This document shows positions 1,087-25,900 of a stretch of 64,000 bases of DNA, piece after piece. Position 1 is the stretch's first letter. Every line of letters begins with the position of its first letter. The DNA is from Trichoplax adhaerens. Its lineage: Eukaryota > Animalia > Placozoa. Location: NCBI RefSeq assembly GCF_000150275.1, contig NW_002060944.1:4902123-4966122 (forward strand). Direction: 5' to 3'. The translations under genes were made by a program, and so were the position numbers. The notes below the pieces were generated by a model. That model had not been told where the DNA came from. It made no database searches and saw only the letters and a program-made list of their open reading frames with translations.

Positions 1087-4000
1087 ATGGAAACCACCTT
1101 GGAAAAAGAGATTGATCTACAAGAATCGCCAGCAGGTCCACGTGAACGATTGAAAAAAAGAATTTCCAATCGATCATTGCCTCATGTACCAGCGGGAAGC
1201 AATGGCAATCAACGACCAGCAACGCGAAAATTGCCTTCAGCTCCATCGCCTATTACCACGGCTGGCAATGATCAAAATCCATTATCTGGTAAAATTCGTG
1301 TTATACCTATTGAGGCACAATTGAAGCAATTAGAAGCAGCAAGACGTCGTTCATTGCCGATGACAGCGGGTAATAAGCAAGAGATTTTAGTTCAATTGGA
1401 AGCTCGAGATCGAGCCGAAAGTTTCAAAGATAGAATGGTTGATCCATCATCTTCTTTACCTTACCATTTTCAACATGAAACTTACTACGATGTCGAAAGC
1501 CATCAAAAAGGCACGCAAACGCTTATTATTGATGCATTCGATGAAGTACGAGTACCATGGACTATCGTCGCTAGATTTAAACCAACTTCTCCTGGGTAAT
1601 AATGATCTATTGACTAGACATTGATTGAAATTTGAAGTAAAAACTTTAGAAAATACAACAAATTTATTGTCTACTATCTCTCTAATCAATCTCGATAGGA
1701 TCAATTAAATACAACTTATTGTAGAGTGTCCATAGATAGATGGAATCCTATCTACTATGATATAATATCTTCCGTAGTTTAAATAAAGGTAGAGCTTGTT
1801 TATAGATAAGCGCTTGATAGACATCGATCTTGATTAATTATGAGCGATATAAATGGCAAAAATGCCATCTTGCAGCTAAGCATAACGAATAATAGAGCAA
1901 TCCATCGTTTTACAGCGCAGATTGCTTTTTCGCCTCATTTTTTCTGCTCCCTACACACAATACAATTTATTCCATAACTATTTCTACTGGATCTTTTATT
2001 TAAATTTTAATCGCTTCTTTTCTCCTATTGCACTTAGAGATAAAGATCAAAATATTGACATCGGTCAAAACAGAATCACTTATAGAGCAACAAGTGGTGA
2101 AATTTATGAAAGCAATGTTGATCGGGTCATCAAAGCTACGGATAAAGACAACAAGCACGATGAACTTTATAAAATGATCGGCCAACCTATAGTTAACTTA
2201 GCTTTCAAAGGCTATAATACTTGCCTTTTCGCCTACGGACCAGTACGTAAACAATTTTAAAGTAGAGAACGATAACCTAAATAGAATGCTTACTATTGAT
2301 GCAGATGTTGACATATATAAAACAGTTTATTTGAATCCTTCCTCTGAATTGTTCTACCTTTTATCCTTTCATTGGTATGATTACTATCGTATTATAAGAA
2401 TATTCAAGTACCCCAACTAGCCACTAATCATACTATGTACTTTATTTTCGATCGACATGCTATTGCTTATCTAGTATGAGACTATGCCGTTATGACTACA
2501 AGCATTACGATAGATATTCCATCTATAGCATGTAATAAATTCAAAATAAGAGATAGTTCAGGTGGAATTCCTACTATTTATGTAGACTTGAACATAGACA
2601 ATATTAATATAGAATATCTAATTTTGGATCATTCCCTTCAAGTATACCACTTTTAGCTATTTTGCTTCATCATCATTACAATCTTTATCGGCATCATTTT
2701 ATTCTGATGTCTATGCCAAAAAGTAGAAAATGATGCTGTCCTTTTTGTTTTTCTGCCAACTCAAACTTCCATTTATTATAGGAGCAGATTAATACTATTA
2801 CATGTATCATCATGACAAGCTTTTAATCCATGTCATTTGCAAGAGTTTCCTGTGCTTTCAATTATGACTTCGTGACCTTTAATGTTCCTCCTTTTCTTTT
2901 GGTAATTTTTTTTAGATTGGTAGTGGAAGATCTTACTGGTAATTGTTTCTAGAACCACCATATGCTGGTTTTAATACAAATATTTTTAATTCAAATTAAT
3001 AAAGCTACTTAATGCCACTTTTCAATTTCCATTCCTCGAATTTGTCTTGCGTGAATACTTTAACATTGATAATTAGTGCCTTTCCAATTTTCTTTTACTA
3101 GCATTACCGGCAATGATATGGATGAAGGATTAATTCCGAGGATATGTGATGAATTGTTCGATAAAGTAGCAGAATATGGGGAGGTATTTGCACTTTTCTT
3201 CAATGTTTTCCTTCCTTTCAAAATATCTAACCAAGGTATATTGCTGTTAACTAATTAGGATAATGCTAGTATCGAATTTGGCTTTTACGAAATATTCAAT
3301 GAAAAAATCTACGACATATTAGCACTTAATGAACATACTAAGGCAGTATGTAATCTTAATTCTAAGAGCATAAGTCTAGCTTTTGAAAATGATTATTATT
3401 GAACTCAACAGAATATTCATATAGCTATAGATAGATAAGCGAGCAAACAACTTTTCCATTAAAAATTTCAACTAATATTAATCATTCCTTATTTCACTCA
3501 TTATTAGCTAAGCATATTAGAAGATCCGCAAACAGGACCTTATATCGATAATTTATCTATGTAAGCTACTTTTAAATTAGAATTCAAAATTCTTCATAAA
3601 AAATAAAAGAAATATTAGCCCATCATCTATAAAATGAACTCTGTTTAAAGGATCGGTAGTAATATTAATAATAAAAATTTTTTTACTATCGAAAAAGGTT
3701 TATAGTGAAATGTAAAGAAGACATTATAGTAAGTTAGAAGATAAATGATGCTTATAATATCTTCAAATTAAGGTAGACTTTCACATTTTTAATTATTCTA
3801 CAAAAGATTTAATGTAAGCTAAAAATTGAATATAGGACTGGCTAGAATATGGACAAAAGTTTAGGGCCATTTACAGTAACGGAATTAATCGTCGAAGTCG
3901 TCGAGCACATGTTGTATTTACGTTAGTTTTAAAAGTCTTCGAGGTAGTTTTCTGCAAGTTTCCTAGGCAACCAATAATTTTAAAATCATAGTGCAATTTT

Positions 4001-7000
4001 TATACCGTCGATTTTGAACTTATCATGTATACTATATTATAGATAGTAATTGTCCTAATTTAATCTTCTATAGACAACATTGGATGGAATAGAAGAAGTG
4101 GCAACCACTGCCAAAGTATCACGACTTAATATCGTTGACCTAGCTGGTTCTGAACTTGGATTTCAAAATAGTGATATAGTAAATTATATGCATCTCATTA
4201 ACATAGTAACAACTATTTTCCAGTTGGCATGCATGTTAAATTCTTAATATGACTATTATACTATATAATGTAACCAAACAAATACTAAATTACTATCTTT
4301 TTTTTTTAATATACAATCTTAGGACAACTGTAGTATTAGTCAATCGATACAATCCTTCAAGGCAATAATTAGGCAATTATCCATGGAAGAAACTGATGAG
4401 AACAAAGCTGAACGAGCTTATAAAGATTGTGATTTAACGAGGTAATACAACTTCATAACATGATTTCGAGATGGAAAGCTTAATAATTTCAAACTATAGA
4501 TTAAAATGACCTGCACAGTAGACAGAAATTTCCTGTTCATTCTTTGTTTAATCCAGTTTATTAAAAGAAATCCTGGGTGGAAATTGTAGGACTTTTATGC
4601 TGGCAACTCTTAGTCAAGCTGCTTCGAGTACTGGCGAAGAATTTATAGATACGATAAAATATCCAAGAATATACCAAACTATGTCAACTCTAACATTGTT
4701 ATAGAAATTTGATCGTTGCGTAACTATAACTTTGTTGCTATTTTATATCAATCAGATACAATGAAATATTTAAGGTCTATAAAACTGTTTAAAATTCTAA
4801 TATTAGCGTAAAATGACATCACTTTATTGAATAAGAGTATTTGTATTACTACTCAAATCATCTGGTTAATTTAATCGTTTCAAGATTTTACGAAATGGGT
4901 ATCAATTATAAAAAATTATTCTGTGAATTCCAATTTGATTGCTTTATTAATCTAGAAATAGCATTGCATGGATATTTTATAATCCTTAATAATTCATAAG
5001 TTATGCAATGCTGCAAAGTCAATTATAAATCGAGCACGAATTAATGAAGATATTTATGGTCTCCATCTTAAAGGTACTAAACTTCAGATTATCGTCATGA
5101 TAATATCTAAAAAAGGCTAATTACACTATAATTATAACTGTTAATTTCCTTACTGTTTTGGCTAATATAAATTCCGTCGTAGAATTAAAGAAGCAATCAA
5201 GTGACCTTAGGAGCCTTATGGCACATCAAGAATCCAATTCTACATGGAGCAAAGACCTAGCCAATATACAGAAAGACATTGCTATCACCGTTAAAGAACT
5301 TACAAGAGAAAAAGAGTAAATTTAAAAATTCTTTAAGAAATTGTGCTATCATGCAAATCAGTACAATACTATATGAGACTGGTTTAGTTCAAGATTTAGT
5401 ATAGTTATTTTCTATTCAATTCATTCTGATTACAGATTAATTAATTATAAATATGAAGAATCTAATACATTTAAAGATAGAGCACGACAAGATCTTGAGG
5501 TAAACTATATGCGCAATCAACCGATATTACTTGAAATCTACTATTCAAAAATGATTTTAGATATCTAAAATAATTTTATCAAGTCTTAAAATTAGAGAAA
5601 TGAAAATAAAGCATTATTCCATCACCAAAATTGTATTTCAGGAAATGGGAATTGCACCCATGAAAGACAGCAAATTTGATTACTTGGTTAATTTACACGA
5701 AGATGATCGACTATCAACTATTTTGTACTATATCTTAAAATGTAACTGAACACTACTCCGGATAGACTTTATTTAGAACTAAAGTATATTTGCAAAATAG
5801 TGGAAAATAAAATTGCAGGATAAAAATTCCAACTGTTATCGCTATATTATAACGAGACCAATCTTTCCGTATCAAGCAGCATACACCTCCGTGGGAAGTC
5901 TATATTCTGATTGCAACATCCGTTTACCTGGTGCACTCATAAGTGAAAGGCATTGGTAAGTTATCGTAACTATTATGCCATATGTTTTCATGCTATGGTA
6001 TAAGATAAAATCTTTTTTGATCATTTACGACCTAGTGTATTAAAATTACTTATTTATGGGTTATATTGGACATCATAGATTAAACTAAACGAGTAGAATA
6101 ATATCCTATGTATCCCACTAATGGCGAAGTAATGCTGTCTAACTAAATAATTCGTTAGTTTTACATTGCAAAATGATTTTAATCAGCAACGGTCTGGTCT
6201 ATTTCAATCTATGGAAATGCAGTTTACATTGTAATCTATATTTTAGCCAATCTATACTCGGAATAAGCTATAGTTTTTCCCAGCCAGCTAAGTGATGGCT
6301 TTGAAACAATCCATCTGCGCCATAATATAAGATAAAATTACTTGACTAGAAGCGATCGAGTCTATTTAAATCTATGAAAGATACAGTTTATACATACTAT
6401 AGCCTATGCCCATAACCAACTTACGAGCAGATTAAAGTTATATTCAGTCAACCATGACAATCTTATCGGTTTCGGTATTTACGTTATGTTATAAGAATAA
6501 AATTAATTTAATCGTCCATGATTTAGCTTACGATACAATCTGCCCAATAGTATCATCCATTAGTACTACAAATTATAGGCATATAAATTACTTATTGAGT
6601 TACGATTTATTCTATGTAAAATTTCTGATAAGAAAAGCCACTCTTAATATAATTATCATTCTAGCTATCATATATTTAGTTAAATCATATCCAGCCAAAA
6701 CTAATAATGATATAATCTAATCAATTATCGAGTACTATTTAACTAGATTCTAGCTACTGTAGACTCGTTATTAGTCTATTTAAGCAATGTCAAAAATACA
6801 ATACAATTTGTAATATAATCTTAGCTTAAATACAAATTTACTGCAATATATCTCGTACACCAAAAACTACATGTTTTCTTATTTATAGCACATTGCAGTT
6901 TATCAGTTTTAAGAGCAATAAAATTATTGTTATTATGAAATATCAAATAAGCTAATTGCAATGCATATCACATCTATTTAACAGTTACTTCGAAATTAGC

Positions 7001-10000
7001 GGTGATAAAATTACCGTCACTCCGACAGGTAAGAGTTTAAATTAGTGAATAGTAAAGGAAAGTGCATACCATACTATACATTTGAATTCTTTTCTACACG
7101 TCCAGCTCCCCAGAGATATGCTTACTTCTTCTAGTTTTAACCTATGATCTTTTCCTTTATAGAAAACTCAGCCACATACGTCAACGGTGAATTACTTAAA
7201 GAAAAGAAAGTCCTACATAATGTAGGGATTAAAATTCTGGTTTATCGATTGTTTATTTTCCTTTCTCACTGATGTAACACTGCTCTCGCTTTTGTAGAAT
7301 GATAAAATAGTCTTTGGTGATCAATTCTTTAGGTTAGAGATTAGGCATTGCGCATCATTACTACTTAAATTGGATAAAACCTTCTTCTAGTAACAAACTA
7401 TTGACCTCACTGCTGATAAAAGAATTTCTTTTTTCTCTTTATAATTTGCTAGAGTAAATTGTTCCAGAAGACGTGCATTGATTTTAACGCAACCTACAAC
7501 AGTTGGATCAATTACATTTAAACATGCATATCAGGAGCTGTTATCCAAACAGCTGGAAAAGTAAGCAGAACATAAATAATAAATTAATCGATATTCTATT
7601 ATCCTTTGATGTAAAACTAAATATATAGCGGTAGCTATACTCTTACGGTAAAGGAAAAAATATACAATAATTTAATCTACTAATTCTATATACTGTAAAG
7701 ATAGTCAATACAATTTCATGGTTATTTGTTTTCGTAACAGCCTTGTTAGAAGGACCTAGTTCTTAATAATACAATGGTCATTTGTCTTTATAAATCGGTG
7801 ATGAGAATATTCATTCTAATTCAAAATGATAGCTAGCCAAGAACATATGAGAAATACTCTTTTAATTATCTTGATAGACTCGGTGGGGTATAAATCGAAG
7901 ACAATGAATTTATCTTTTAGCTGTTCGCTATAACAATTCTCATAATTTAGCGCTGCAGATATGATTTATGATTTATAGGGGCACGATCTAAGTACCTAGT
8001 GTTACAGTTTAAATTTCTAATGACAATCTTTATCCTAATTCCCCAGTAGAGAAAAGAGAATATCCCTTTTAGTGCATAAATAATCAGCGTTCTCAACTAT
8101 ATGATAATTGATCATTTGCCTATTTTTTGGCGAGGATTATCAAATGCTATTACTGTCAATTTTAGTCATAATATGTTGAATATAATCCAAATTATAATCA
8201 CAGTTTACATCTATAATCGAGGACAAAGATATCTTCAGAATAATTTAACACTCTATGGTGGAAAATACTGGAGACTTTCGTCCATATAGAAATATCATTG
8301 TCTACGCATCCTATATCCATTAATTCTTGCTAATATGGATGAATGGGAAGAAAAGTAATTCCTTATAGATGTTAATAGAAAGGATTCCAATTTCTACATT
8401 ATATACAGCAATTAGCCAAATAGTCTATTCTGTTACTATTATAAGGGACGAAACAAAGTTTCTGTCTAGTAATCTTGCCTCCCTATTACATCTCCGTAGT
8501 TAAGACAAGCCTATCCTCACCAAGTTCCTGTCTAGCCACCTAGTCTCCCTATTACATCCCCATAATTAAGATGATACACCATTATAAAAGTAATCACTGT
8601 AACTTGAGGTAATAACGTCTATAGTAAAGTCAGTTCTTAAGGGTCTACAATAAATCAGACTAACTGGATTTAAAACCCAAACTAAGCTTTATTACAATAA
8701 AGCTAACCGTAACTGCATTTACAACAAAATATTAACAAGAAGAATTCCCAATCTACTTCTTGTATAAGCTTATATGTCCTAGTGCATGACCTATTTAATA
8801 TCGATGGTAACATTATCACACTTGCATGCGCTAAGCACGGGCATTGAATTACTATATTTTACCGGGGCACAAGCGACTAATGGCATTTAAACTACGCTAG
8901 TATTATAGCCTACGGTAGTGCATATTAGTAATTCCATAGTTAATTCAGAATTTAACTCAAGTACTAAGCTCACGACACTACAACAATTATTTCATGATGC
9001 AGGATAATCCAAGAAATTGAAAATGCTAATAATCAACTAGACGAGGAAATTTCACAAAAAATCATGGATTTACAGGTAAATCAGGAATCTTGGCTGGATT
9101 CTATTGCTATATTCAACTGCGTTTTAAGTATTTCCTTAGACAAAATTGAAAGAATTTTAGATACAGCAACAATTTAACAAAATATGATTGACTAACATAG
9201 AAACAAGATGGAAATCCTGCTCAATTACGCATAGCAATTGAAAAGCTAGAGTTCCAACAGAGTGATTTATCTATGGTTAGAGAATGGATCCGAAATTTAG
9301 TAAGTAGAGATGATGCTTGTCCATAATCCAACCTTACATGCTTAAAAATGATCTGATTATTTTTCACTTTCTATTTATATATTTCAATTTGGAAAATTTT
9401 GACTACACTATAAACTAGAAACGACTAAGAAGGATAGATCCAAAGAAAAGAAGAGATAGTTTAATGAGTATCGGTGAATAAATTCTAATATAGCTAAGTC
9501 ATAGAGAATTGGAAAGGAAAATGATCGGAAATGGCTGATTCAAATATTTTTTATTTTACTGACAGATGAAAGTACTTATGAAAGTTTAAGACTCTCTATT
9601 CTTCTCAACGAAGCCAATCATATTAGTAAAGCTATTGGAGAAACAGCAGTAAGTATATCATTATCCTAATATTTAGAAAATTGAGCCAAATTGAATTTCA
9701 ATATCTCAGTCTGTTCATTGATGATTATCTACGTAGATATTTGATCGTCTTGACAACGTAGTCGATGGAAAGGTAAGAAGCAACAGGATGAAGGGTTTCT
9801 ATTCGACCTTAAAAAAAGCTTACCGAAGAAGTTTTACAATAACTGATCATTGACGATCGTTTTGGTCATTTCTTTTACCAGATTTTAACTAAAATCTCCA
9901 TGAAAAACCCACAAACTAACAAGACTACTACCTGGTCCTTTTTGAAATTTGAATCGCACCTCGCTAATATGCGCGAGATCAATTGGGTAGGAGAGGATTT

Positions 10001-13000
10001 CTTGTTTAAATAGAGATGTTCTAGTTGGCTGTGATCCACTAGTATAAGTCTTTGGTTTTAGTTGGATCTTATGAGAAATAGAAGTAGTAGGATATTAGAG
10101 CTTTTCCGTTATACTTCTGTCGGTGATCACCATCTTGACGTATTGAAGACCTAAGGGAAAAATTGAAATTTCTGTTCACTAATTTGTAGGAAACCAACAT
10201 GAGAAAATCCAATTATACGGATGAATTAAATACCGGTCGAGTTGGAGTCTATAAAATTGGTAGCGAAGAAGCAGAAACAACAAACAAAGAGAGAATCCTT
10301 ATTCCAAAATCAGAAAGCGACCAAAGCGATTTTATTAAATTATCGGAGAAATTACTCAACGACATGACTATAAAGAAATCATCAAGTTTACCGATACGAG
10401 ATAGTACAAAAGATCTAGCGGATATTGCCATGACTGATTTATCCAAAGTTTTAGCTAATGTCGAACCTGAGAGTAAATTAATAGGGAAAGACGAAACAGA
10501 AATCGATACTACAGAAATAGTACTAGAAAATCCAATTATTGATCCGTTGGGTTTAGATACAGAATCAATGACAATCGATTTAACTAATGAAGAACAACGA
10601 AAATCACTAACAGATTCCTTATTTCAAAATTCCAATAAAATCAACAATTCTTTGTATGGCAGTTCGGGGGATAAATTAGAATCGTTATTTCATAATGTGT
10701 CAGGCGATGTTAATTCACCTAGTAGTAAGGAAACTTTAGATAGCACTGAAATCAACGATCATGACTCTGAATTAACGTTTAATTCCATTTCCTTAACGGG
10801 TAGCAAGCGTTCATCTGTTGCCAGTCAAGTAGAAATACATCCAAGTAGCAAGCGATCATCTGTTGCCAGTCAAGTAGAAATTTATCCGGATAGCAAGCAT
10901 TCATCCGTTGCGAGTCAAATAGATATACATTCTACCCTTCAAAGTAATTATTTATCTAAAGAAACACAGCAGGATAATCCTAATACAACGGGAGATATCA
11001 ATGATAGAAATCATTATTCCAAGAGTGAAGAATCTACGAAGGCCGTTGATAACAGGACTATACCCAATGCAAGTCCAGTTATTGCCATGAGCCATGATAA
11101 TTATACTTCAAGTAGTGGTGAAGATGATCGAAGTTCAAGCTTACGACAACGACCAGTAGTAAAGAAAGAAGATCTAAAGCTGTTGTAAGTTATAGCTAAT
11201 GGTTGAAGAATAGTATTACTCACTTTCTTAATCTTTTTGTTTCATTCAGTGTCTTAAAATGTGCTAAAAGTAACTTAAGTATAAAAATGAATTAAATTCG
11301 TTTTCATTTACGGTATATAGAGAAATTGTGGCCAAAAATAGTATTCAGACTGGGAAAGGATCGAAAGGAATTTACCCTGTAAGAAGAGGACGCAAAGCCG
11401 AAGTGGCTTCACTGGTAAGATAAACATTATTAGGGAATTTTTCAGTGCCTTAAGTTATAAGTAATGTACTGCTTTTGCGCTGATATGATATAATAATAGC
11501 TTTAACAGTTAAATCATCGTTAAGATAGAATAGACACTATTACAAAATTATTCAATGCCTTTTCAATTAAGTGTGATATTGCATTGATATGATAAAATAA
11601 TAACATTTAGCAATTACATGATTAGTAGGTTAGGATAGACCCTATTAGAAAATAATAGTGAAAAGTACTAGCTTCAACAGGCAAATCATTAATGAGATAG
11701 AATAGACACTATTAGAAAACATTAGTTAAAAATACTAGCTTTAATAGTTAAATCATTACTAAGGTAGGATAGAGAATATTAGTAAATACTAGCTTTAACA
11801 GTTTAATTAATGATTGGTAAGAACAGATAGATATTATTAATATTTAAATATTAGCTTTAATCGTGAAAGAATAATATATACACTTACTTGTAGGAAAGGG
11901 AAATTTTATCTGCACCATCAAGTCCTAAATTAGAAAATCGAAAATGTAATGGACTCAATTTAATATAGCGTCCATCTGATACAAATTAATAAGTATTCTC
12001 TTTATTATTGCACAAATATTAATAGTTATCAATTTCTTGCATAATTAGCCTTCAATTCCGCAACAACTATTGTCAAACTTTGTCATGATCATATCCAAAA
12101 GGCAATCTCATTTTTGGAAGGTATATCTAGATAGTTTTTACATACAATAGCAAAGCTACAATTTCATATCTCGAGAATTCGGAGTAGAATAATAAAAACT
12201 CGACGTTATAGCCATTCCATTAATTTGATGTATTATCCGTATTTCTATATGTACCTTGTAGCTGGAGTACAAGCCTGTTATGTCCCACTACCTCAAAAAG
12301 TTTTACACGAATGCCAGATGCTATCAGCTTTTGGAGCCTTATTACTCAGATACTATAATAAAGGTAATGAAAAAATTTCCTGTAACGTTGGCTAAATTGA
12401 TTAATAGGGCGAAGATACTGGCAAAATTCGATACAAAATAACTTATTACAAGTGATTCTATTATAATATACGCCTAACTTGATTATCGATCAAAACTTAA
12501 AAATATTCTCAGAGAGAGTCGGAAGTTCCGTTAACCTAAATCATTGCTGTCTCCAATTAACTGTATCGATGGAAATGCTGGCTGAACATGTTCGAACTTG
12601 GGGTAGTATGGATATTGCCCATAATACCTATGATCATATTAATATCCAACTATTAGGAATAACAAAGATCGCAGGAGGAAATGTGGCTAATATGCTTCTG
12701 GTAAGCTAATTTAGAAATAAATAAGTCGTGATTATTAGTAATTTAGTACTCCTGAACATCAGTTATTGACTACTTTAAAATTCTACCATATGTTATAGGC
12801 TGCTGAAACTTGGAAGGTCAGCGAAATCCATAATTCTTATAAGAGAATTTATGATTGTGTCCATTCTATTGCTGAATTATCAGGGGAACATACCTTTGTA
12901 TCAGCATCTTACCTATTTAATGATGAGAAAATTGATAATAGCGATATGATTGATGACATAGATAGCCATCGCAACCTTATTCAGGTATAGATCCATTTGT

Positions 13001-14556
13001 GAAGCAATCTTGGTGTGATATTTTCGTAATAGAGAGCAGTTGCATGCGTGATGTTAGTTGGGTGTAGAAGGATCTCAATTTTCGCTTTAATCAAATATTT
13101 CTGTATAGACAATATTATAAAGTTCTAATTTCGATTCTAATTAAAAATAAATTCATATTACATTAGTCTTACTATCCGTGAGAACTAAATAGCTAATAAC
13201 TAACTGTACTATATCGCTCTATAATTTGGTATCCTATGAATAATTAATCTATATAAATTCAAACATTTTAATAAATCTTGTTATTAATTCTATTAGCTAA
13301 CATCATTTCAATTTAATAGAATAGTCGTTATTAAGATGCAGCGATAAATTTACCTATAGTTGGAATACATCTAACTGTTTATTTCCAATAAATAGTTGGA
13401 TAATTATCTGAAAAAACGATATATTGATGGATCAAATCGTCCCATCGAGAAGGCGATCATCGAAGCTTATGACTGTATTTTGGAATGTGATGAAAAACTT
13501 AGTATCACCGGACATTCTCATCGAGTTCAGGTAAGATACATGAAACTATTAAACGTATTCTTAACTTAAAATATTTAAATTGTAGATTAATTCCTCAATA
13601 AATATATAATCTAGATAAGTGTTGAAGTCATAAATTGTCTCCTTGACATTACACAAGATGTAAAAATTTTATTAAAAGATCAAGGGCTCTTGCAATCGAT
13701 AGAGGTAATGTAAAAATTCTATCACTACCCATCTGCCTTTGTAATAAGTATTTTATGTGAGATAATCATGAATAGTATCGTCCAACCCTAAGCTAGCATC
13801 ATTATGTTTCGATCAATATCGATGTCATAGTCTTCAACTTTTGAAGCTTAATTATTTCGACCAGATATTTATTCTTTAAGATTTTATATAACTGACCTTA
13901 GATATCTTTACCAATTATAGAATGATATTGACGATTTTAATCAAGTCTATTGCCAATCTTCATTTATTCAGTCGGTTTATAATCGAGCAGTGGTTGTTAT
14001 TAACGATGTTGAACGATTAAAACTGGATGTTCAATCGCTAATTGCTACCTGTTGTGACAAGAACAGTTTAAAGAATAGATTGAAAACTTATGAGGAATCA
14101 GTTCAATATAGTAAAAGTATTATTCAAGATATTTCAAAATTGTTAAGAGTCATCAATCGGCATTCCAAACGTTCCAGTTTAATCCCAAATACACCAGAAG
14201 ATGGTTCAGTAAGAACGCCCGACTTATCACTGTTTGATCATTCTAAATCTCAAGATGACGACACAGACACTGGCATCATTGATCTAGCACAAAAAATTAT
14301 ACAAACTTGTAATACATTAAATAAGATTTTAAGTAACAGGTCGTCAGGTTCAACGACACCAAGACCATCCATTCGTGGTGCATTAGTAAAGGGTGATGAA
14401 CAAGTAACATCATCTACACCACCTCCAATTTATGTTAGATCGACATCATTTACAAATAAAGGGATTAAAAAAGGAATATTTGATGATGCAAAAAGTCGCG
14501 AATTAGAGCAAGTTTTAGCATCAGTTAAGAAAAAGCATAAAAATCAAGGTAAATAA
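1087..14556 (+). CDS. Kinesin-3 family protein, KIF14-like (N-terminal extension, motor domain, FHA, coiled coils, helical C-terminus), with divergent ATPase motifs; ~36 coding exons
   Basis: Exons traced in frame include 1087-1595, 2038-2242, 2916-2938, 3102-3183, 3259-3345, 3508-3560, 3698-3728, 3836-3943, 4074-4178, 4323-4441, 4557-4658, 5000-5073, 5183-5315, 5436-5499, 5642-5741, 5880-5955, 6985-7028, 7163-7221, 7298-7332, 7453-7560, 10190-11184 and 13921-14556, plus further short exons in 9003-9987 and 11321-13704. Motor motifs: AFKGYNTCLFAYG, EGLIPRICDELF, FYEIFNEKIYD, NIVDLAGSE, LLKEILGGNCRTFMLA, INED. Kinesin-3/FHA motifs: LVNLHEDD, ISERHC, TYVNG..NDKIVFG. KIF14-like motifs: NEANHIS and TWSFLKFESHLANMRE. 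Confidence 0.85.
4659..4999 (+). other. Putative U12-type (minor) intron with AT-AA termini in the kinesin gene
   Basis: 5' end ATATCCAA; branch site TCCTTAAT at 4983-4990; no polypyrimidine tract. Splicing joins EEFIDTIK to LCNAAKSIIN, colinear with canonical ETLSTLRYANRAKNI. Confidence 0.7.
8456..8570. repeat. Two-copy ~65 bp direct repeat in a kinesin intron
   Basis: aagtt(t/c)ctgtctag...ctccctattacatc...ttaaga occurs twice. Confidence 0.75.
10801..10930 (+). repeat. Coding 45 bp x3 repeat, SK(R/H)SSVASQ(V/I)(E/D)I, in the kinesin low-complexity exon
   Basis: Visible in the translation of ORF 10199-11188 and at DNA level (tagcaagc..tcatc.gttgc.agtcaa). Confidence 0.9.
11490..11862. repeat. 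Degenerate ~60-65 bp intronic minisatellite, ~5-6 copies
   Basis: aatactagctttaa(c/t)agttaaatcat and gatagaatagacactatta recur. Confidence 0.75.
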
Positions 14557-17500
14557 ATCCAGTTTTACATGAAATTCGATTCTCAATCAAGGCACTGCTA
14601 GAACTACGCTACATCCAATCTCCGACTTGTATCAGATCAATATTATTTCACCAAGCTTAATAACGTCTAAAATCGCTCATTGGCACAAGTTTTGGCATCA
14701 TTTAAGATAATACATGAAAAATTAAGCCTAACTAAATCAAAAAATTAATTTCTATACCATGCAGAATTTGATTTATAACACCAAATAATACTGGCATTAG
14801 ATTACGTGCTGCCTAATGCCATCTGCTGTTTCAATCTTGCTGTAACTATCTCGTATTTGAAAGTAACGATAAAAGTTATATTCATCATAGAAATTAAGCA
14901 ACCCATCTGTTAACACAAAATTGTATAATTATTCATGTCTATTCATTTACACTGTACGTATATCTATCAATTCACTTTTGCATCGATTTACTTCGCTAGC
15001 TCTCTATATGTACAAGGATACTATTAAATTGGATACCGCAATACCATTAAATATTTTCCCGAAAATAATAAACTAATTTTCGATATTTTATATTAATTAT
15101 GTAACATAGTTCAATATAAAAATTCTTCAGTACTACTCAAAAGGAACTATTATGAATGATCTTGTTTCTTCTTCTACTTCGCTAATAACTGTAATGATAT
15201 TATTAGCTGAAATGATAGTAATTATCCTGCAGTCGTTAATTTTTCAATTGTTTTGGCCATCCTACTGTTAAAGTTACTTCTTTCACTATAACGTTTCAAT
15301 TGAGACGATACTACTATATTTGATACGTTCTAATCATTCTTCTATATAGACATAATTGTTATAAATAATTGCCAACATTTAAGTTTGTTTCTGTAAGAGC
15401 TACAATCTTCTGTCAGTTATGTATTTATTTGTATTTATTCTAGCAGTACCATATCAATCAGCTCAACATTCAACATAAAAAAACACTGTCATTACGTTCA
15501 TTCCAATCACTGTTGATATTTGTAAGTTACAAATTTGAAAAAAATAGAATGTTTACAAAATATTTTACGTTCTATTTTGTCTATAATACGATTCTAATCA
15601 TAGTGGTAGCCTGCCCTGAATTAGTCGGTAACTTTATGATGTTGACGTTGAAGGATAATTTTTTGCGATCAAGTGATTCTTGATGCAGTTAAAGGACAAA
15701 AACTGATATAGCCGTTACGGTAGTGCAAGGAAACCGTTTTCTTAAAATAAAATGAAAGATCAAATGGACAATAGTCCACCTATAAAATTTTATCTTTTGG
15801 CCATTAACAATGTGTAAAACTACTTTATGTACATAGATGAGTTATTTAAATAATTTACTAAATTAATTGCTTATTTTTTTTATAAAAGATCACTATGGAA
15901 ATGATCTTCATTCATCATTTTCTACCATGTTACTATCATCAAATTTCCAAGTTTATGTGATGTACTAACCAATGTCACCATCAACAAACTTAATATTGCT
16001 TTAATTTGAAATAAAATATCTCAGCTCAGTTTTCTCTTCCTTGCTGATATTATTCAATTATCAGCTGTGCTATAAATTTATTATCCTTAGTAAGTTAAAT
16101 ATCCCGTAATTTGAAACTTAAAGTTATCCTTAATTTTATATTAATTTTAATATTATGAAATTTTGCATTAAAGAAACTGGCTAGAACGATATAATTGCTT
16201 TGCAGCAAGAATAGATAATACGTTCTAACGATATGCTTAGAACTTATCGCTATCATTTACATTAATATTATGGGATTATGACATGTGCGAAGCTGTATCA
16301 TCTCAACAACCTAGCTTTATGCTATAGAAGGCTAAATAGCTATGAATTTAAAAATAAAATTCTCTGTAAACACTTCTTTCTATAATAATGCCATCCAAAT
16401 ACAACATTCTAATTATGAAGTTACTTATAGCGTTTAGATATACGAAATAACAATTACACTTGAAATACTATTTTCAGCTTACCCTTTCTTTCAAACAGAC
16501 ATCGTTAACGTTATGCTTTATGTTGGGCATTGTTGTATCATTTTGATATTGCATAAATTTAAAAATAAAATATCTTAAAGTCATCCTTTTAATTTGTACT
16601 AACTTTAAATCTTTCAGTTATATCCTACCAGAAGCGTTGTATCGTCATAAGCAAACTTGATATTGCTTATATCAGATTTGCAAAGATATCTCTAAGCATT
16701 CTTTTCGTCTTTGTTACCGTCAACTTAAGCTATGTACATATATACAGTAGCAATATCATCCCAGCCATACTAAATGTTGCTTAGATTATTGTTATATCCA
16801 GTAGATAAAAGAGTCTTATCAGTTTTAGCTATTGCTTTATTGGCGAGATATCTTAGTTAATAATGAGAACGTAAATTAATCTAAGCTGGTAAATATGCGT
16901 AAATATGCGTAAAAAGATAAGCTGCATCGATCAGTAATATCTAAAAGTTACCTTTATGGGAATTTCCTCTTTTAAAAGGTAAAGTAAATAGGACTGGTAA
17001 AGTTGCCGACGGACTGATTAGTTAGGTAACAGCATCAATAGCTCAAAATTTTAGCCTACTGTACGAATATAGCTCTAGATAAAATAACCTAAAGAATTTA
17101 TTTCGGAATAGTCCTTTAACGTGTTTAGGCAACAAGATGTATACTCTAATCTATACCTTTGTCATAAGGGAGACTGATTTGTCTTGGATCGTCAAAATAA
17201 AATAGTAACGAATAAGAGTAGGTTAGTTACTATCCTTCTTATACGCTTTATCATGGACAAATGACATGGTAGTTTAAGACTATGAGCCCAAGACAATGTA
17301 AACTTTGTCAATTACAAAGAAGTATAGAACCTAAGCAAATTTTATATACTATTATGGAGAAGAGACTGCTACTATTTAAAAGTAGTCTTCATTTAGGCTA
17401 CGACTTGATCTCAGTTGATTATTGCAATTTTAAATCAGAATTTTAATACTTTTTGAAAATCCATTCTCAAGATTGATATAATCAATCGAGCTTTCAGTAT

Positions 17501-18644: not shown

Positions 18645-19924
18645 TTAATGATTTGGCGTAATTTGCATTTGTAGGCTTTGCCCAATATTGACTGGACCAT
18701 TATTAACACTAGCAATTGGTGCACCGTTACGATAGAGATGATTTGAATAAGGGCTTGGCATCGCTTCTGAACCATCTGATTGTGATGACAATGGTGATAA
18801 TGTCGATGTAGACCAACTTTCTGGTGATTCTGGTGGTGGTGTCAAATAATTAATAACCAATCGATTACTTTGTGAATTTAAATTAGTTGTTGTTGTCGTT
18901 GTACATTGCGGTGGTGTTTCACCATTAGGATATTGCGAAGGCGGTGTTAGATAGAATTCTTGAGTCATCATTGATGGTACTGGAACTGTTGTAATAGCGT
19001 TGTGAGTCATTAAATGAACACCGTTGACATTCTCATTATACAACTGCTGCGATGAAACTGGAATACCGGTTGGATTATTATTAGTAGTTACTATTGAAGG
19101 CGAATCATCACTTTCTAATTCATCCACTAAAACGGGTTGATCATCGGTTAAATTGTTTGCTGATGCTAACATTTCAAATCGTTTTGCATTCCTTTCTTGT
19201 AAATCTAAACTAGAATCATCACTATCACTAAACATAGCAACATCCGATTGCATATCTTGCCAACTTGTTTGCTCTATCATCCCATTATTGGTTATGGTTG
19301 GTCCATCATTTTCTAAATGGCCATTTTGATTGATAATATGATTACTAGAAGGATTACTGCCATCGTCTATATCAGTTGGTTGATTGTTAAAATCAGCCTC
19401 TTCATTATTATTAATGGGAGATACATAATCTAAAAAGGCTTGATCTAACTCTAACTCTAAAATATTTTGTAGATCAAATCCTTGATTGCCATCTTCTGTT
19501 TGCATAGGTACCGGCACGTAATTAGAGTTATGATGTAAACCATGACCATTGACCATTTCTGTGGTCATTGTTGGCAAAGTAACAGTGGCTTGCATGGGTA
19601 AACTTGGTTGTGTAACAGGACTAACACAAGTTGTTGTTGAATTTACACCTACCATACTAATAACTTCTCCATTCGCCGTAGTTACAACAGCTGATATTGG
19701 CGATGGTTGGAGAACAATCGGTGATGGCTGATGCTGTGGTGAATCATGATATTGTGGAGATGCTAAAGGTGAATTTTGGGCTGCATTAGGTACTAGTCTG
19801 GCTTGTTGTTGTTGCTGTTGCTGTTGTTGTTGTTGTTGCTGTTGTTGTTGTTGTTGCTGCTGTTGCTGTTGTTGCTGTTGTCGATGGAGCTGCTGTTGCT
19901 GTTGTTTTTGCTGATGTTGATGAA

Positions 19925-19955
<31 letters not shown>

Positions 19956-22900
19956 ATGGAGCTGCTGTTGCTGTTGTTGCTGTTGATGAAGCTGCTGTTG
20001 CTGTTGGTGTAGATGCTGTTGCTGCTGATGCAATTGCTGTTGTTGTTGAACTTGAGTTTGTACTTTCTGTTGTGACTTTTGTGCGTCTCGACCATTGACC
20101 GATTTGGCATAATTAGTTGTGGTCGATTGGCGTGGAGTCATACGAGGTATAGGTACTTTGGGTTGTGTTGTCTCTTGGCGAAATATCTCAGGGGAGACAA
20201 TTCTTGGCTTATCCGGTAATGGAGAGAGTGATGCAGCTGTTCCGTTGGTCGTTGCTCCATGAACAGCAACTTTCCGACTCTGATGTTGACGAATTAATTC
20301 TGCAACTTGACGATGTTGCTTCTCCTTAGCAACATCATATGGCGTTCTAAGATGAATATCCTCAATACTTTCATCAGCATTTCGACCTAATAGAGCTTTG
20401 ACATTTTCAATTCTGCCGTCTTTAGCTGCCTTAAATAGTGCTGTCTCACCATAAGTATCTTGTGCATCAATAGCAACTTTATGTTCAAGTAATATCTGAA
20501 CGATACGAGAATGTTCTGTACTGGCTGCCCAATGCAATGCATTTCGACATTTGTTATCGACTGTATCTACCTTGACCACATCAGGTAATTCCAGTAATTT
20601 CTTGACAATATTAGTCATACCATAGCGTGCAGCATAGATTAATGGAGTACTACCGGTTTTATCCGTTGCAATTAAATCTGTTCGGCTATCATGAGCTAAA
20701 ATCTAGTAGAGGATAAATGGTCAAAAAATTGATTAAGAAATGCTATTTTTCTCCTTGAACATGTTTCAACTACCGTATAAATGCCTTCATTTGGCAAAAT
20801 GAGGAGTAACATTGGAAAGTATATAAGAGCAAAGGATCGAGGATGATAAGTAAAACTAGGAAATATTGGCTCAATTACAATTACAATTTACCTTAAAAAT
20901 AGTCTCTGCTTTTGATGTTATAGCGATATGTAACGGTGTCCTACCCGTACTCTCTTTAATATTTGGATTAGCACCGTGCTCTAATAACTTTGCCGTAGCA
21001 ATTTCATTTCTTTCAATTGAAGCAAAATGTAATGCTGTCATTTGATTATCATCTTGGGCATCTTTATCAGCTCCCGATTTGATTAGGTAATCCATAACGG
21101 TAGCAATATCAATGTGATGTTGACTATTTTGATCATTCTTATCATGATTTTCCTGATCTTTCTTCTTACCATTAGTTAATGGATTCGATTTTCGACGAAC
21201 AATTTGCATCAACGGTGTTATGCCACCTTTCCCTTTAGCGTTAACATCTTCTACATAACTTAATAATTCTTTGGGAGCATTTTGATCAGGTAAAAATTTA
21301 GGATTCGATTCGTTACGATGTAAACTATTCCATTCACGATCGTCTTCAGCAATCGCTGGGAAATCGTAATTAGAATCCGTTTCACTATCGTCGTCAGGAT
21401 GATTTATTTGCTTTTGATTAATATTGTAATGAAAGCGTTTACGTGGAGGTTCGATAATATCCACTTGTGTTTCACCGTCAGAATTCCAATTGATTTCTGT
21501 ATTTTTAATATCTGGCACTTCACGACAATTTTTATATTCTTGCCGCATTTGTTGCTTGTGTCCATAAGCACCAGCACCATTATTCATGTTGCTATTTCTA
21601 ATCATAATAATAAATAACATCAATTTCTAGCTATCTAAGTACAAGGCAACTAAGCAACAAATCAAAATACTTGTCGATTACATCACTAATGTAATTTATT
21701 GCTGTAACTTGAACATGCTAATTATCGACGGTTATAACAAAATCGATCTAAACTACTGTTTTTAAACATGAAGATTCTACTTACGGTCCAGCAAGTTTGG
21801 AGTTATAACTAGGTAATCCATTATTATCTTTATTCTCTTTTGATCCAAAAGGAAACCAAATACCGCGAGTTTCTTTCCTTTTACGTGTTTGCAAAACCCC
21901 TACCACTAGGAAGATGATAAATACGGCAGCTCCACCAACGGAAAGTATTAGAATCCATTCCAATGATAGCGGATTATCTTGAATCGGCACTTGAATAATT
22001 TCATCTGGAAAAGAAGGAAATTAAGAAATAAGTCCATAGCTTAATTTCTTTTCGCGACAAGAGCTTATTATATCTCCATGGTTTCGATTTGCAACTCTAT
22101 GCAACTGTCACTGATTCATGCGATGGCAAAATCATGATGCAAATTATTGAGGATTATAATACGATTGCACGATTCGTAATTTTAATATGGTAACCATGCA
22201 ATCTATGATCAATTTATAAGTCTTGTATCTAATTTTAATATAGTATTTTTATTATTGGACATTATCCATCTTGATTATTCATGATAGGACGGCTTACCGG
22301 ACAGAGAGAGTATCTTGAATGGAAGTTTGTTTAAGAGAATACTCTTGGAAATAGCTAAAGCTGCTAAAAATTTAGCCGCCTAAAAGGAAATATTAAATGG
22401 AGATGGATATACGTAGTTTCTATTTCTAGCTTAGGTCTCAAATTGTCAATTCAAGTTATAATTACGCTACCTCATTTGTCTTCTTAAAGCAAGATCCTGT
22501 ACATCCACGATTATCCAAGATTATACCTACTCGTAGCCTGTCATAACGGATATTTGAGAAATGAGAAGAAACAAATTAGAAAAATCAATCTTTTACTACC
22601 GATGTGTGAAATAAAGTAGCGCCAGAATTACTTCGACAGGAACTGAGTGTATTGCAAAGTCTATCACGAGTAATTACGTCTTATTTCTTACCCGACTGTC
22701 GATGTTGCTCGGCGTTCTCTATTCAATATAAACCTTCCATTTTTGAAATCGTTAAAGAGCGATCTTTTACTTCTTGATGTTGCACCAACCTTGACTTCTT
22801 TAACATCATCTTTACCATCCACTTTGGCAATTTCTATAGTAGTTCTTATAGCAATACTTAACGTTCTCAAAAATGACTTGGAGCTGTTGGTGAAGGATTC

Positions 22901-25900
22901 TAAATTGGTTGCCAAGATCATATAAGATACGCCTTTGGACTACGCGTGAGAATAGGCCATGATAGAGCAAAGAAAAATAGAAATTATAAGTAAATTGGAC
23001 ATGCAAGCCACAAGATATGCTGTCACTTTTTCTAGTTAATTTCATAACTCAACTTTAGTACAGAAACGAATTACGGAAGATTGATAGAAGAGCAAGTAAG
23101 ATCAAGGAAAACAGAAAGAATAAAAGCTGAACACTTACATATTTTGGTGTTTGATCATTGCAATCTAATCCGTCAAACATGCATTCTCGGCTATTGCAGC
23201 CTTTATCGCAATAACCATTACCATAATTGGCTTCGCAATACTGATTGTAATTATCCCTAAATTTCAATTATAAAAGATACTTAATAATGGTAAAAATGAA
23301 ACAACTGTACGAGAGAACTAGTCCAAGAGCTAGACAAAAAGGATACAATGCGAATGCGGTCGTGAAAATAACTTACGGGCAAGAAGCTACTGCTTGATTG
23401 CAATCCCAACCATCGTATAAACAGCTTTCAGAGTTACATTCTTGATCGCACCGACCATCATGAAAGAGCTTCCAACACTGTCGGCCATCCTTACGTGTGC
23501 AATTACTCCATGGGCTCAAATAGAGTGAGCAATCGAATCCATCCCAGGCGCATTCGTAGGTATTACATTCCGGCTGTTGTGAACGATTAAGAAATAGGGA
23601 GATATTAAACTTATGAAGGGACAATAACTAATGTCATTAGGATATAAATAAGCGATGAATACATTAGCTTATTGGATGAGAAGTATGCAAACTTTATCAT
23701 GAAAAACTTACGTTGCAAACTGAATTGTTAAATACTTTCTTGCATGATGGGATGCTACAACGAGCGCCTATGTTATTAAGGCGAAATTCATTTCTTAGTA
23801 CTGAAATAAATGCGATAAATTTATTGAAGATAGATCGGATTAGGTCATATTTACCTGGCAATTCTATTTCGCAAGACTTTCCAGTATATCTCCATGGGCA
23901 TTGGCACTCTTGACGACCTTGTGAACTTGTACATACACCACCATTTAAACAGCGACATCCACCTTCACATCTTGAACCGGTAAATCCAGAGACGCAATCA
24001 CATTCGTATCCATTGGCTAATTCTCGGCATTGACCATCATTCTGGCAAGGATTAGGCGAGCAATGAATTACTTTACTATTACAATCTTGACCAGTGAAAG
24101 AGGATGGACATGAGCAAGTGTAAGTGCCATTACTACTTTGGCATGTACCACCATTGTCGCAAGGATTGGATGTGCATGGATCAAGGCGACTTTGGCAATT
24201 TTGACCTACACGAATTGATAAGTGTTTCAATAGGACTATCGATGATGAGTGGAAAACTCCTTATTGAATAAACTTGTTAATTTTACCTGTAAATTCATCT
24301 TTGCAGATACAAGTATAGCTATTATCGCCATCAATGCACTTTTCAAGGCCTTCTGCGTGGCATGGCTGGGATAAACATTCATCAATGTTACCTTGGCATC
24401 GATCGCCAATAAAACCTGTATTACATTCACATCGGAATCCACCAATTTCATCGATACATTTCCCACGACGATAGCAGGAATCTTCCTGGCATTCATTTCG
24501 ATCAGTTTCACAATGGATACCAGTGGTTCCAGTAGGACAAACGCAAATGTAACGATTAACAAGATCATGGCAAGTTGCAGTATTCATACATGGTGAACTT
24601 GCACATTCATTGATGTTGGTTTCGCAGTGTGTTCCTAGCGAAAGTTAGATTCGTATTGGTGCTTTAATATCCAGTAGATTTGAATCGGATGAAACTGTTA
24701 TACTTTGAGATTTAATCAATAGTGATACTCTTACTAATAAACAACGTAGCAACTTAAGAAAATTGTACCTGTATAGCCTTCCATACATGTACAGTTATAA
24801 CTGTTGATATCATCATGGCAGACACCTTTATTTAAGCAGGGCGAAGATGAGCATTCATCGAAATTGCTCTCACAATTGCGTCCAGTATAACCTTCAATTA
24901 ATAGCAATATAAATTAACCATATGAATATTTGAGGAGCTATTATCAAATATTCTGAAATATTTAAGCAATACTTCATGATGCCGTTAACTACCTGGTTGG
25001 CAGACACATTTATAGTTATCGTCGAGATCGTAACATGTCCCATCATGATGGCAAACGGTACTGGCACAATCATCGATATTCGTTTCGCAATTGCGCCCTG
25101 TAAAGCCATCTTTGCAGAAACATTGATAATTGCCAATATCATTAAGGCAATTGCCATTAAGGCATGGATTGGATAAGCATTCATTAATATCAGTTTCACA
25201 ACGTTGGCCTCGATAACCAACAGGACAATCGCAAAAATAGGAGCCGATGGTGTTGACACATTTGCCTTTCTCACATACACTTGCGCCAAGGTTACATTCA
25301 TCTGCAGAAAGAACGAGAATGAAATATAAGCTTTGCTTTTAAAAAGGATAAAATGGAGTAGTACAACTTTCATAAAAGAAGGAGCTCCTCACAGCTGTAT
25401 ATCAAAGACATTATCGCTGTACTTACTTATATCAATTTCACAGTGGATTCCTGTATAACCTCGAGAACACATGCATGATGCATTACCGCTAATATCGGTG
25501 AAACATGAGCCTAAATTCATGCAGGGGCTAGAAGCGCATTGATCAACTTTGTCGCAACGAGCACCTAATATAGATGATAGTAGCAATTTAACAGTGAGAT
25601 ACCAGGGTAGATGTTGAAACTATCATGACAGGTTATTGCGAATATTGGAAGTCATTGCAACTCCACTTATGCTTATTAAATTCACTTCTCTTACCGGTGT
25701 ATCCTCGCGCACAATCGCATTGATAACTTGCGACTAAATCAACACAAGTAGCACCATTTTGGCATTCATTATTAACGCAATCGTTGATGTTGGTTTCGCA
25801 TTTTTTACCCGTAAAACCAGCTTGGCAATGGCAAGCATAAGAACCATAAGTATTTTGACATGATGCATTATGATTACAAGGATTCTTGATACATTCGTTA

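Follow-up and report, generated by a model that had tools for sequence, protein, structure and literature searches.

Kinesin-fold heads without normal ATPase activity are known from other subfamilies than that of KIF14 and include Vik1/Cik1, KIF26A and VAB-8. Vik1 is the kinesin-fold precedent for a partner subunit, being the obligate partner of an active motor and binding microtubules strongly, and Costal-2 and KIF7 are members of the kinesin-4 lineage. Vertebrate KIF14 is a cell-division motor that is essential for cytokinesis in human cells. Human KIF14 arrives at the central spindle via its N-terminal extension and not via its motor (PMC2063646), and a preprint describes microtubule binding by the extension itself (bioRxiv 10.1101/2020.01.30.926501). 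Costal-2 and KIF7 employ the kinesin fold as a non-motile Hedgehog scaffold, according to two reports (PMC2867816, PMC12919046). The window analysed here (a 64,000-nucleotide stretch of Trichoplax adhaerens DNA) contains a KIF14-family gene with the same succession of N-terminal extension, motor, neck coil, FHA domain, stalk block and helical tail as KIF14 of vertebrates, echinoderms, hemichordates and corals. Compared with those proteins, the placozoan one has an acidic motor, a 330-aa insert and no membership in the mitotic expression module. Its head lacks key residues for ATP handling and microtubule binding, and judged from its sequence the protein is probably a non-motile scaffold, likely common to the placozoans, and the likely sole placozoan KIF14 orthologue.

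The gene lies at 1087..14558 on the forward strand, as do all features below, and its 36 exons encode 1705 aa without an internal stop, bearing out the roughly 36 exons and open frame of the initial annotation. RNA-contig joints were seen at 24/35 introns, and the other 11 are based on GT-AG ends, reading frame and RNA contigs of 1854 and 919 nt. All 11 motor-domain introns are present as joints in RNA run X5. The joints on either side of the proposed 23-nt P-loop micro-exon at 2916-2938 (2242>2916 and 2938>3102) occur in three of four RNA runs (X5, X6 and X8, from three studies), confirming that it is spliced. Run X4 gave no joints among its listed rows and run X18 gave no records, neither of which is evidence of absence. 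An unspliced, DNA-like run (X1) spans 2880-5900 with eight listed base differences, none of them in motif codons; because its motif codons are identical, the motifs from 2916 onward cannot be due to an assembly error. Use of a different P-loop exon carrying GKS/T was not found, since the transcripts carry the altered exon and a six-frame search of the gene gave no GxGK[S/T] (the only matches in the window are at 21156 and 25918), so that a hidden canonical P-loop exon is absent. A Ser/Asp/Glu-rich insert of about 330 aa (10190..11184), covered by RNA contigs, includes a 45-nt repeat of 2.9 copies at 10800-10930. A candidate exon at 10043-10139 was dropped because it breaks the frame and conflicts with the RNA contig size.

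Membership in the KIF14 family is supported at the sequence level by trees, FHA domain and tail, in keeping with the KIF14-like identity first assigned. The best BLASTP matches are KIF14 proteins, with 335 bits and E 7e-96 for coral KIF14. In the phylogeny that had been proposed as a check, two trees without KIF13 and KIF28 (the first omitting two near-copies, the second having 15 rows without three long branches) both had a 100/100 branch with motor plus FHA on its KIF14 side. AU tests did not reject placement outside KIF14 (p 0.053), the branch being long (5.59 versus 0.005-1.05 for other KIF14 tips). Neither the alignment nor the first tree includes four rows with duplicated or gapped models (Biecheleria, Branchiostoma unc-104, Pocillopora and Acipenser KIF14). 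Exon 2 ends at a codon shared with exon ORFs of coral KIF14 (YGP| versus YGQ|). The neck linker IINRARINED, neck coil and FHA are retained in the alignment, with the neck coil and a coiled coil ahead of the FHA in the kinesin-3 order. The FHA domain (about aa 600-672, 5880..7461) was recognized by KIF14 alignment, with weak Pfam matches to FHA (E 0.03) and Kinesin_assoc from single exons. The kinesin-3 stalk block LxEANxIS...TWSxxKFE (within aa 749-865, 9566..9986) scored 57.9 bits with a KIF14-tail profile. A KIF14-tail profile built for this analysis gave 61.5 bits for the C-terminal helical region (aa 1209-1621, 11383..14299), for which the best of 50 shuffles reached 5.7 bits and a KIF16-tail profile gave no match; the tail is retained, as is the FHA, in line with the initial annotation. 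This region overlaps the segment that Pfam names 4HB_KIF14 (PF23313) in coral KIF14, a family whose score is weak on coral KIF14 too. Four single tail exons gave no 4HB_KIF14 match in Pfam. Of 18 exon pieces, 7 had no Pfam family at all, including the helix-4 exon and three tail exons, and RCC1-like matches of tail exons in the ESM Atlas were rejected for low recognition, with no other usable match there. The N-terminal extension (aa 1-157, 1087..1557; net charge +2, pI 9.0) has a basic stretch at aa 21-60 (+8), and reference KIF14 extensions have a net charge of +3 to +18; no similarity to other KIF14 N-termini, no Pfam match and no homologue were found for it. Searches of exons 1 and 2 against longer proteins gave no homologues, which is weak evidence of absence, and scanning metagenomes with the alignment of exon 2 gave five loci of 35% identity, which agreed at one common set of residues and were taken as chance.

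The motor domain (aa 158-493, exons 1-12) spans 1558..5060 by Pfam and BLASTP, extending past the stretch first annotated (to 4660) to about 5060, across a non-canonical intron. PF00225 was matched in order by six single exons (E 4e-6 to 0.08), each under the whole-protein cut-off because the exons are short. Each motif was found at the position originally given, and changes are numbered here as in KIF1A. The RxRP motif reads ARFKP (1570-1584), with R11 kept and R13>K. Exon 2 (2038..2242) ends in AYGP (Q98>P) after a deletion before helix 1, both features being common to a 74%-identical relative (P0001) with the same exon border. The micro-exon IGSGRSY (2916..2938) carries T99>I and K103>R and keeps three Gly and S104, so that the RNA-confirmed P-loop, split over 2237-2242 and 2916-2938, reads GPIGSGRS and departs from the consensus GxxxxGK[S/T]. 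The microtubule-binding segment of loop 8 (3508..3560) is LSILEDP for LRVREHP (R167>S, R169>L, H171>D). Switch I (3887..3910) is NRRSRRAH and departs from NxxSSRSH at S215>R and S217>A, with N211, S214, H218 and the catalytic Arg (R216) retained. Switch II (4137..4157) has the whole DLAGSE of the DxAGSE consensus, only the following residue being changed (R254>L), and loop 11 after it is five residues shorter than in bilaterian KIF14. Helix 4 (4332..4358) reads SISQSIQSF, with the 'linchpin' Asn lost (N272>S) and L278>F, and loop 12/helix 5 (4416..4439) reads AYKDCDLT (P305>A, R307>K, S309>C). Y105, Y306, D248, G251 and the R216-E253 pair are also kept. The claim that all ATPase motifs are altered was therefore overstated, given the retention of DLAGSE, the switch I residues named above, the P-loop Gly, S104 and R11. 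Some of the motor changes are conservative (K>R, R>K, E>D).

Of 109 near-invariant motor columns, 70 (64%) are kept, compared with 88-100% in 27 kinesin-3 references and 77% in an oomycete KIF15-like outgroup. Six residues at nucleotide or microtubule sites (Q98, T99, K103, R169, S215, S217) are identical in 28/28 references and changed here, as are R307 and S309 (28/28) and N272 (27/28, one gap); GQTGSGKS, SSRSH, N272, R169 and YR, retained in all 15 KIF14-set references, are lost. The net charge of the motor is -14 (-5 to +8 in the 15 KIF14-set references), that of loop 7-8 is -3 (+1 to +5) and that of loop 12-helix 5 is -4 (+1 to +4). By this residue count, the putative microtubule-binding face (loop 8, the helix 4 Asn position and loop 12) is acidic and without its usual basic character. 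In the neck-FHA part 9/15 near-invariant columns are kept, with 32-34% identity to coral KIF14 (motor 38%); the whole protein is fast-evolving, and part of the motor drift is therefore general.

Published work allows the individual changes to be weighed. S215R and N272S equal KIF1A disease variants in a human list (PMC7844421 table 2). In a study of KIF1A variants (PMC8054982), T99M is non-motile with rigor binding rather than lost binding, R13H loses microtubule binding, and R254W and P305L move at about half speed. Because the latter two still move, R254L and P305A are weak evidence, and the weight of the inactive-motor case rests on Q98/T99/K103, S215, N272 and loop 8. Kinesin-1 loses ADP at 0.034 per s, a rate that rises to 2.77 per s in T87A and 0.14 per s in Q86A (PMC5307337). 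K91 contacts the phosphates, S202 takes part in the hydrogen bonding around Mg, and N255 links microtubule binding with ADP release (PMC4383081). The R216-E253 pair, both members of which are kept here, has been described as essential to hydrolysis (PMC8206134).

The explanation favored here is that Q98P, T99I and K103R would weaken nucleotide holding, that S215R would block the Mg/gamma-phosphate site, and that N272S, the shorter loop 11 and the lost positive charge of loops 8 and 12 would leave the head uncoupled and with a weak grip on microtubules. The head may stay as a folded spacer or docking surface, with the neck coil, FHA and KIF14 helical tail providing dimerisation and partner binding and any microtubule or PRC1 contact made via the basic N-terminal stretch. 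The original proposal of a maintained but catalytically impaired scaffold is supported by the altered P-loop exon in transcripts, the selection data given below and the predicted acidic face. Of the analogues then offered, Smy1 appears closer than Costal-2 or Vik1 because the microtubule face is acidic, although yeast Smy1 belongs to another subfamily and is tied to myosin V and actin, and there is no sign of a myosin partner here; Costal-2 and KIF7 bind microtubules, unlike what the acidic face of placozoan KIF14 suggests.

A slow, atypical but active ATPase or motor is an unlikely alternative, in which an Arg in place of the P-loop Lys and the R216-E253 pair would compensate, and the head would go on cycling on microtubules with help from the basic N-terminus. 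It draws on the retained residues (DLAGSE, N211, S214, R216, H218, the P-loop Gly, S104, R11, Y105 and Y306), on the divergence running through the whole protein, and on the motility of KIF1A with single R254 or P305 changes. The changes hit at least nine near-invariant functional residues at once, however, two of them exactly as in disease variants, the loops facing the microtubule are acidic, and other long-branched kinesin-3 references still hold 88-96% of the near-invariant motor columns. Less probable again is a Vik1/Cik1-like subunit whose dead head heterodimerises via the neck coil and tunes or targets an active placozoan kinesin-3. The kept neck linker, neck coil and FHA and the several KIF1- and KIF13-named orthogroups in placozoans would suit such a role, but Vik1 binds microtubules strongly, whereas the binding face here is acidic. 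KIF14 is not known to form heterodimers.

That the locus is a pseudogene in decay, or an artefact of assembly or gene modelling, is very improbable and largely refuted: the branch of 5.59 and one non-canonical intron point that way, against an open 1705-aa frame, spliced RNA in several studies, motif codons that are the same in the DNA-like run, and a P-loop change shared by P0001. Strain differences, as listed, comprise 18 synonymous and 10 non-synonymous changes (pN/pS 0.15, p 1e-6), so that purifying selection acts on the gene as a whole; the motor holds 2/28 of the listed coding differences, one of each kind. An unexpressed gene with dN/dS near 1, named at the outset as a contrary outcome, was thus not found. 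A diverged duplicate, drifting while a canonical KIF14 exists at another place in the genome, is quite improbable, though less so than the pseudogene. In its favour, seven KIF1-/KIF13-named orthogroups are known by name and not by sequence. Against it, all six rows named kinesin_family_member_14 in the placozoan orthology file fall in OG_3685, with one locus per species, the examined part of the Hoilungia table has three KIF14 rows, all for that locus, and a coral KIF14 query gave no placozoan-labelled protein among the best 120 of 964 matches. From Notch synteny, the matching annotation split, length and E-value, we infer that the gene belongs to the one KIF14 orthogroup present in four placozoans. 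Against mouse KIF14, the motor half from Hoilungia (474 aa) reaches only 1.9e-50 and aa 1-474 from Trichoplax 2.2e-51, compared with 1e-118 to 1e-139 for canonical invertebrate KIF14s. The gene is probably no spare paralogue but the sole KIF14 in its lineage.

Expression data bear on where such a scaffold would act. None of the eight KIF14-orthogroup models belongs to any cell-cycle module, while the best models of KIF11, KIF23, PRC1, citron and KIFC1 score 0.87-0.96 in cell_cycle_2 in three species. Six of the eight are in no module whatever, perhaps because they are poorly detected. In H2, where the cell_cycle_2 module is not annotated, the control does not work. Because the gene models do not co-vary with mitotic genes, a role mainly outside cytokinesis is likely, and the proposed scaffold would act mainly there. 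A bolder extension, which we hold only tentatively and rather doubt, is that placozoans as a phylum have made their only KIF14 a motor-dead, cell-cycle-uncoupled scaffold, with division completed by citron, PRC1 and KIF23 in the absence of a motile KIF14. In the same reading, a putative arginine-filled pocket (R243, R349, R350, R352 and R353) may act as a sensor that holds a nucleotide or phosphorylated ligand without Mg. Motor-dead kinesins such as Smy1 and Costal-2 are already known, but from other subfamilies; here a conserved motor of mitosis is apparently represented by one degenerate orthologue alone, maintained by selection in an animal lineage. If true, this is a natural experiment separating the motor-dependent functions of KIF14 from those of its N-terminus, FHA and tail, and it bears on midbody construction in a simple animal.

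The non-canonical intron lies within helix 6 (4659..4999) and has AT..AA ends, with a joint in X5 and a loose end in X17. Its 5' end is ATATCC and it contains a branch-like ATCCTTAAT. The U12-type consensus has an RTATCCTTT donor and a TTCCTTRAY branch, with AT-AN ends permitted and AT-AA on record (PMC1635337), and minor spliceosomal RNAs exist in Trichoplax. The donor agrees at 6/9 positions and the branch at 8/9, a branch score also reached by 3/34 GT-AG introns; the intron is a candidate U12-type one. No paper pairing KIF14 with a minor intron was found. The gene is broken up in three of four published placozoan annotations, probably as a result of this intron, and a split at or near it may explain why the gene escaped notice.

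The KIF14-family gene comprises 36 exons on the forward strand (1087-14558) and encodes a protein of 1705 aa with no internal stops, in keeping with the initial annotation of a frame open over ~36 exons. Among the 20 sequencing runs listed, drawn from 6 studies, 17 contain this stretch, and the whole gene was compared with four of them (X4, X5, X6, and X8). Runs X5, X6, and X8 come from three studies (X6 is the only one recorded as RNA; X5 and X8 are spliced) and all show the joints 2242>2916 and 2938>3102; the 23-nt micro-exon at 2916-2938, proposed at the outset to carry the P-loop arginine, is therefore used. No joints were seen in X4 among the 15 of 38 joint rows listed. A second comparison, over 2880-5900, gave 13 joints in X5, with 5 of these shared by run X17, and no contigs of run X18 were placed. 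All 11 motor introns, and at least 24 of 35 introns overall, were seen directly as joints; the remaining introns rest on GT-AG ends, frame, and contig sizes (1854 and 919 nt). Another P-loop exon was sought, and no GxGK[S/T] was found in any frame of the gene. The unspliced run X1 spans 2880-5900 with 8 differences listed (7 intronic and one I416M), and X5 has none listed there, two of its pieces having one unlisted mismatch each. The X5 joint 2242-2916 is deeper (43.3) than the next joints (29.6), and this intron is entered from both sides by short X5 contigs, which may reflect RNA spliced in part or a surplus contig. In intron 20 (~8400-8970), additional divergent contigs and loose ends of X4 and X6 suggest a dispersed repeat element within it.

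Comparison with 32 reference proteins places the protein in the KIF14 family. The best BLASTP matches are KIF14 (335 bits for coral KIF14 versus at most 215 for KIF16 or unc-104), and the millipede 'Kinesin protein 1B' (P0064; 282 bits) is probably misnamed, since both the tree and its KIF14-type tail put it with KIF14. In a 27-row motor and FHA tree the protein lies on the KIF14 side of a 100/100 branch, with a terminal branch of 5.59, and in a 15-row tree with three long branches removed it is again on the KIF14 side, beside corals (80/83); both trees cover kinesin-3 groups other than KIF13 and KIF28. With p 0.053 in AU tests, three placements outside KIF14 are disfavoured but not rejected. 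Independently of the trees, a KIF14-tail profile scores 57.9 bits for aa 749-865 and 61.5 bits for aa 1209-1621; shuffled sequences reach at most 5.7 bits (50 shuffles), and a KIF16-tail profile does not match the tail. The second of these regions coincides in part with the segment of coral KIF14 called 4HB_KIF14. BLASTP, trees, and profile support a KIF14-like protein with its tail retained.

Of 109 near-invariant columns, the motor domain retains 70, a lower share than the 88-100% found in 27 kinesin-3 references and the 77% of an oomycete KIF15-like protein. In KIF1A numbering, assigned by alignment offsets, the motor carries R13K, Q98P, T99I, K103R, R167S, R169L, H171D, S215R, S217A, R254L, N272S, L278F, P305A, R307K, S309C, R346K, and Y347L (E267D adjoins a 5-residue deletion and is uncertain). 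Retained residues are R11, G97, G100, G102, S104, Y105, N211, S214, R216, H218, D248, G251, S252, E253, S274, Y306, and T344. The earlier claim that all ATPase motifs are altered goes too far, the P-loop glycines, R216, and D248-E253 being unchanged. Relative to KIF14-set references, net charge is -14 versus -5 to +8 for the motor (15 references), -3 versus +1 to +5 for loop 7-8, 0 versus +2 to +4 for loop 11-helix 4, and -4 versus +1 to +4 for loop 12-helix 5. The neck-FHA region has also diverged (9/15 columns kept; 32-34% identity to coral KIF14, with 38% for the motor), which speaks against decay specific to the motor.

In other kinesins, K91 is described as holding phosphates, S202 as belonging to the network at the Mg site, and N255 as the linchpin of microtubule coupling (PMC4383081). 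Kinesin-1 Q86A and T87A release ADP 4-fold and 80-fold faster (PMC5307337); KIF1A T99M is reported as non-motile with rigor binding and R13H as having lost binding (PMC8054982), and S215R and N272S themselves appear in a KIF1A disease-variant table (PMC7844421). The placozoan protein is likely a non-motile scaffold, as the initial annotation had proposed for a catalytically impaired kinesin-3, a role predicted from sequence. Its head would bind nucleotide weakly if at all, without useful hydrolysis, and hold microtubules poorly; partner binding would fall to the coiled coils, FHA, and KIF14 tail. A basic stretch at aa 21-60 might contact microtubules or PRC1, as the N-terminal extension of human KIF14 is described as doing (PMC2063646; bioRxiv 10.1101/2020.01.30.926501).

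A slow atypical motor is unlikely given these changes; in its favour, KIF1A R254W and P305L still move (1.0-1.1 versus 2.1 um/s; PMC8054982), and the Arg-Glu pair considered essential for hydrolysis (PMC8206134) is kept, which counts against complete loss of hydrolysis. A partner subunit resembling Vik1 appears quite unlikely. Vik1, KIF26A, and VAB-8 are further examples of kinesin folds lacking normal ATPase activity. In function, Smy1 would be the closest counterpart (PMC2141741). At least 28 coding differences were found (27 from 40 of 86 rows listed, one from the 2880-5900 comparison), of which 18 are synonymous and 10 non-synonymous, with 2 in the motor; pN/pS among those listed is 0.15 over the whole gene (binomial p 1e-6), which indicates purifying selection on the gene as a whole. 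With every KIF14-named row of the placozoan orthology table in one orthogroup (see below), a spare duplicate is very improbable; a pseudogene or artefact, given this constraint and the open, spliced frame, is scarcely credible.

Other placozoans appear to share the degenerate gene. By term search of supplement 4 of PMC10580291, all 6 rows named kinesin_family_member_14 belong to OG_3685, which has three models in T. adhaerens, two each in Hoilungia (adjacent) and Cladtertia, and a single one in H2; by name, the same supplement holds seven KIF1 or KIF13 orthogroups, no KIF16 or KIF28, and citron kinase in 4/4 species. In supplement 12 of PMC6067683, the Hoilungia motor half (474 aa) matches mouse KIF14 at E 1.9e-50, and the second half (1198 aa) carries FHA and tail. 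Residues 1-474 of our model give E 2.2e-51 to mammalian KIF14 at Swiss-Prot database size, versus 1e-118 to 1e-139 for canonical invertebrate KIF14s and 1e-84 to 1e-104 for KIF1/KIF16. By these E-values and lengths, the orthologue in Hoilungia appears to be as degenerate as our model and broken at about the same place; in our model, aa 474 is where an AT..AA intron (4659-4999, forward strand) inside helix 6 falls. With its ATATCC donor and branch-like ATCCTTAAT close to the acceptor, this intron is likely U12-type (consensus from PMC1635337); minor spliceosomal RNAs are reported in Trichoplax (PMC2396436). It may be conserved, since Hoilungia and Cladtertia annotations break between motor and FHA. 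Among 17 matches to exon 2, the best is an 89-aa ORF (P0001; 74% identical) whose end, AYGP, falls on the same exon border and which likewise lacks the residues deleted before helix 1; its 26% distance is typical of Trichoplax and Hoilungia orthologues (mean 28.3%; PMC6067683), so it is likely from another placozoan. Open-licence literature searched for Trichoplax or placozoan kinesins, pseudokinesins, inactive kinesins, and KIF14 minor introns yielded, among the papers listed, no degenerate placozoan KIF14, and a large kinesin survey omits Trichoplax from its main text and leaves out the most divergent motors (PMC2867816). The gene is a real and seemingly undescribed case within the known motor-dead kinesins, its motor death being predicted.

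S- and G2-phase modules are described in placozoans (PMC10580291), and cell_cycle_2 was taken, by its content, as the G2 module; supplement 3 places KIF11, KIF23, PRC1, citron, and KIFC1 there (best models 0.87-0.96; T. adhaerens, Hoilungia, and Cladtertia), H2 having no annotated cell_cycle_2. By term search of that supplement, 0/8 KIF14 models fall in any cell-cycle module and 6/8 in no module, for which low detection could be the cause. Of the two Cladtertia KIF14 halves, one falls in a gland module (0.51) and the other in an orphan-rich module lacking annotation (0.68), which includes the neighbouring Notch as well. The gene adjoining KIF14 is notch_receptor_1 in the H2, Hoilungia, and Cladtertia gene tables (PMC10580291); in the AT-rich window, a Notch-like gene with EGF and ankyrin repeats (~18645-25400, reverse strand) lies tail to tail with the kinesin gene, its intracellular part including a poly-Gln tract (19803-20048). 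A 995-nt exon (10190-11184, forward strand) encodes a Ser/Asp/Glu-rich insert of ~330 aa unmatched in other KIF14s, within which 2.9 copies of a 45-nt repeat (10800-10930, forward strand) code KRSSVASQ-like units, possible kinase sites. A 159-aa open stretch (49818-50297, forward strand) has no Pfam match at E 0.01; it reads like an exon of a membrane steroid or polyprenol reductase. A 181-nt tandem repeat (11-562; 3.1 copies, ~75% alike) lies ~500 nt upstream of the kinesin start codon.
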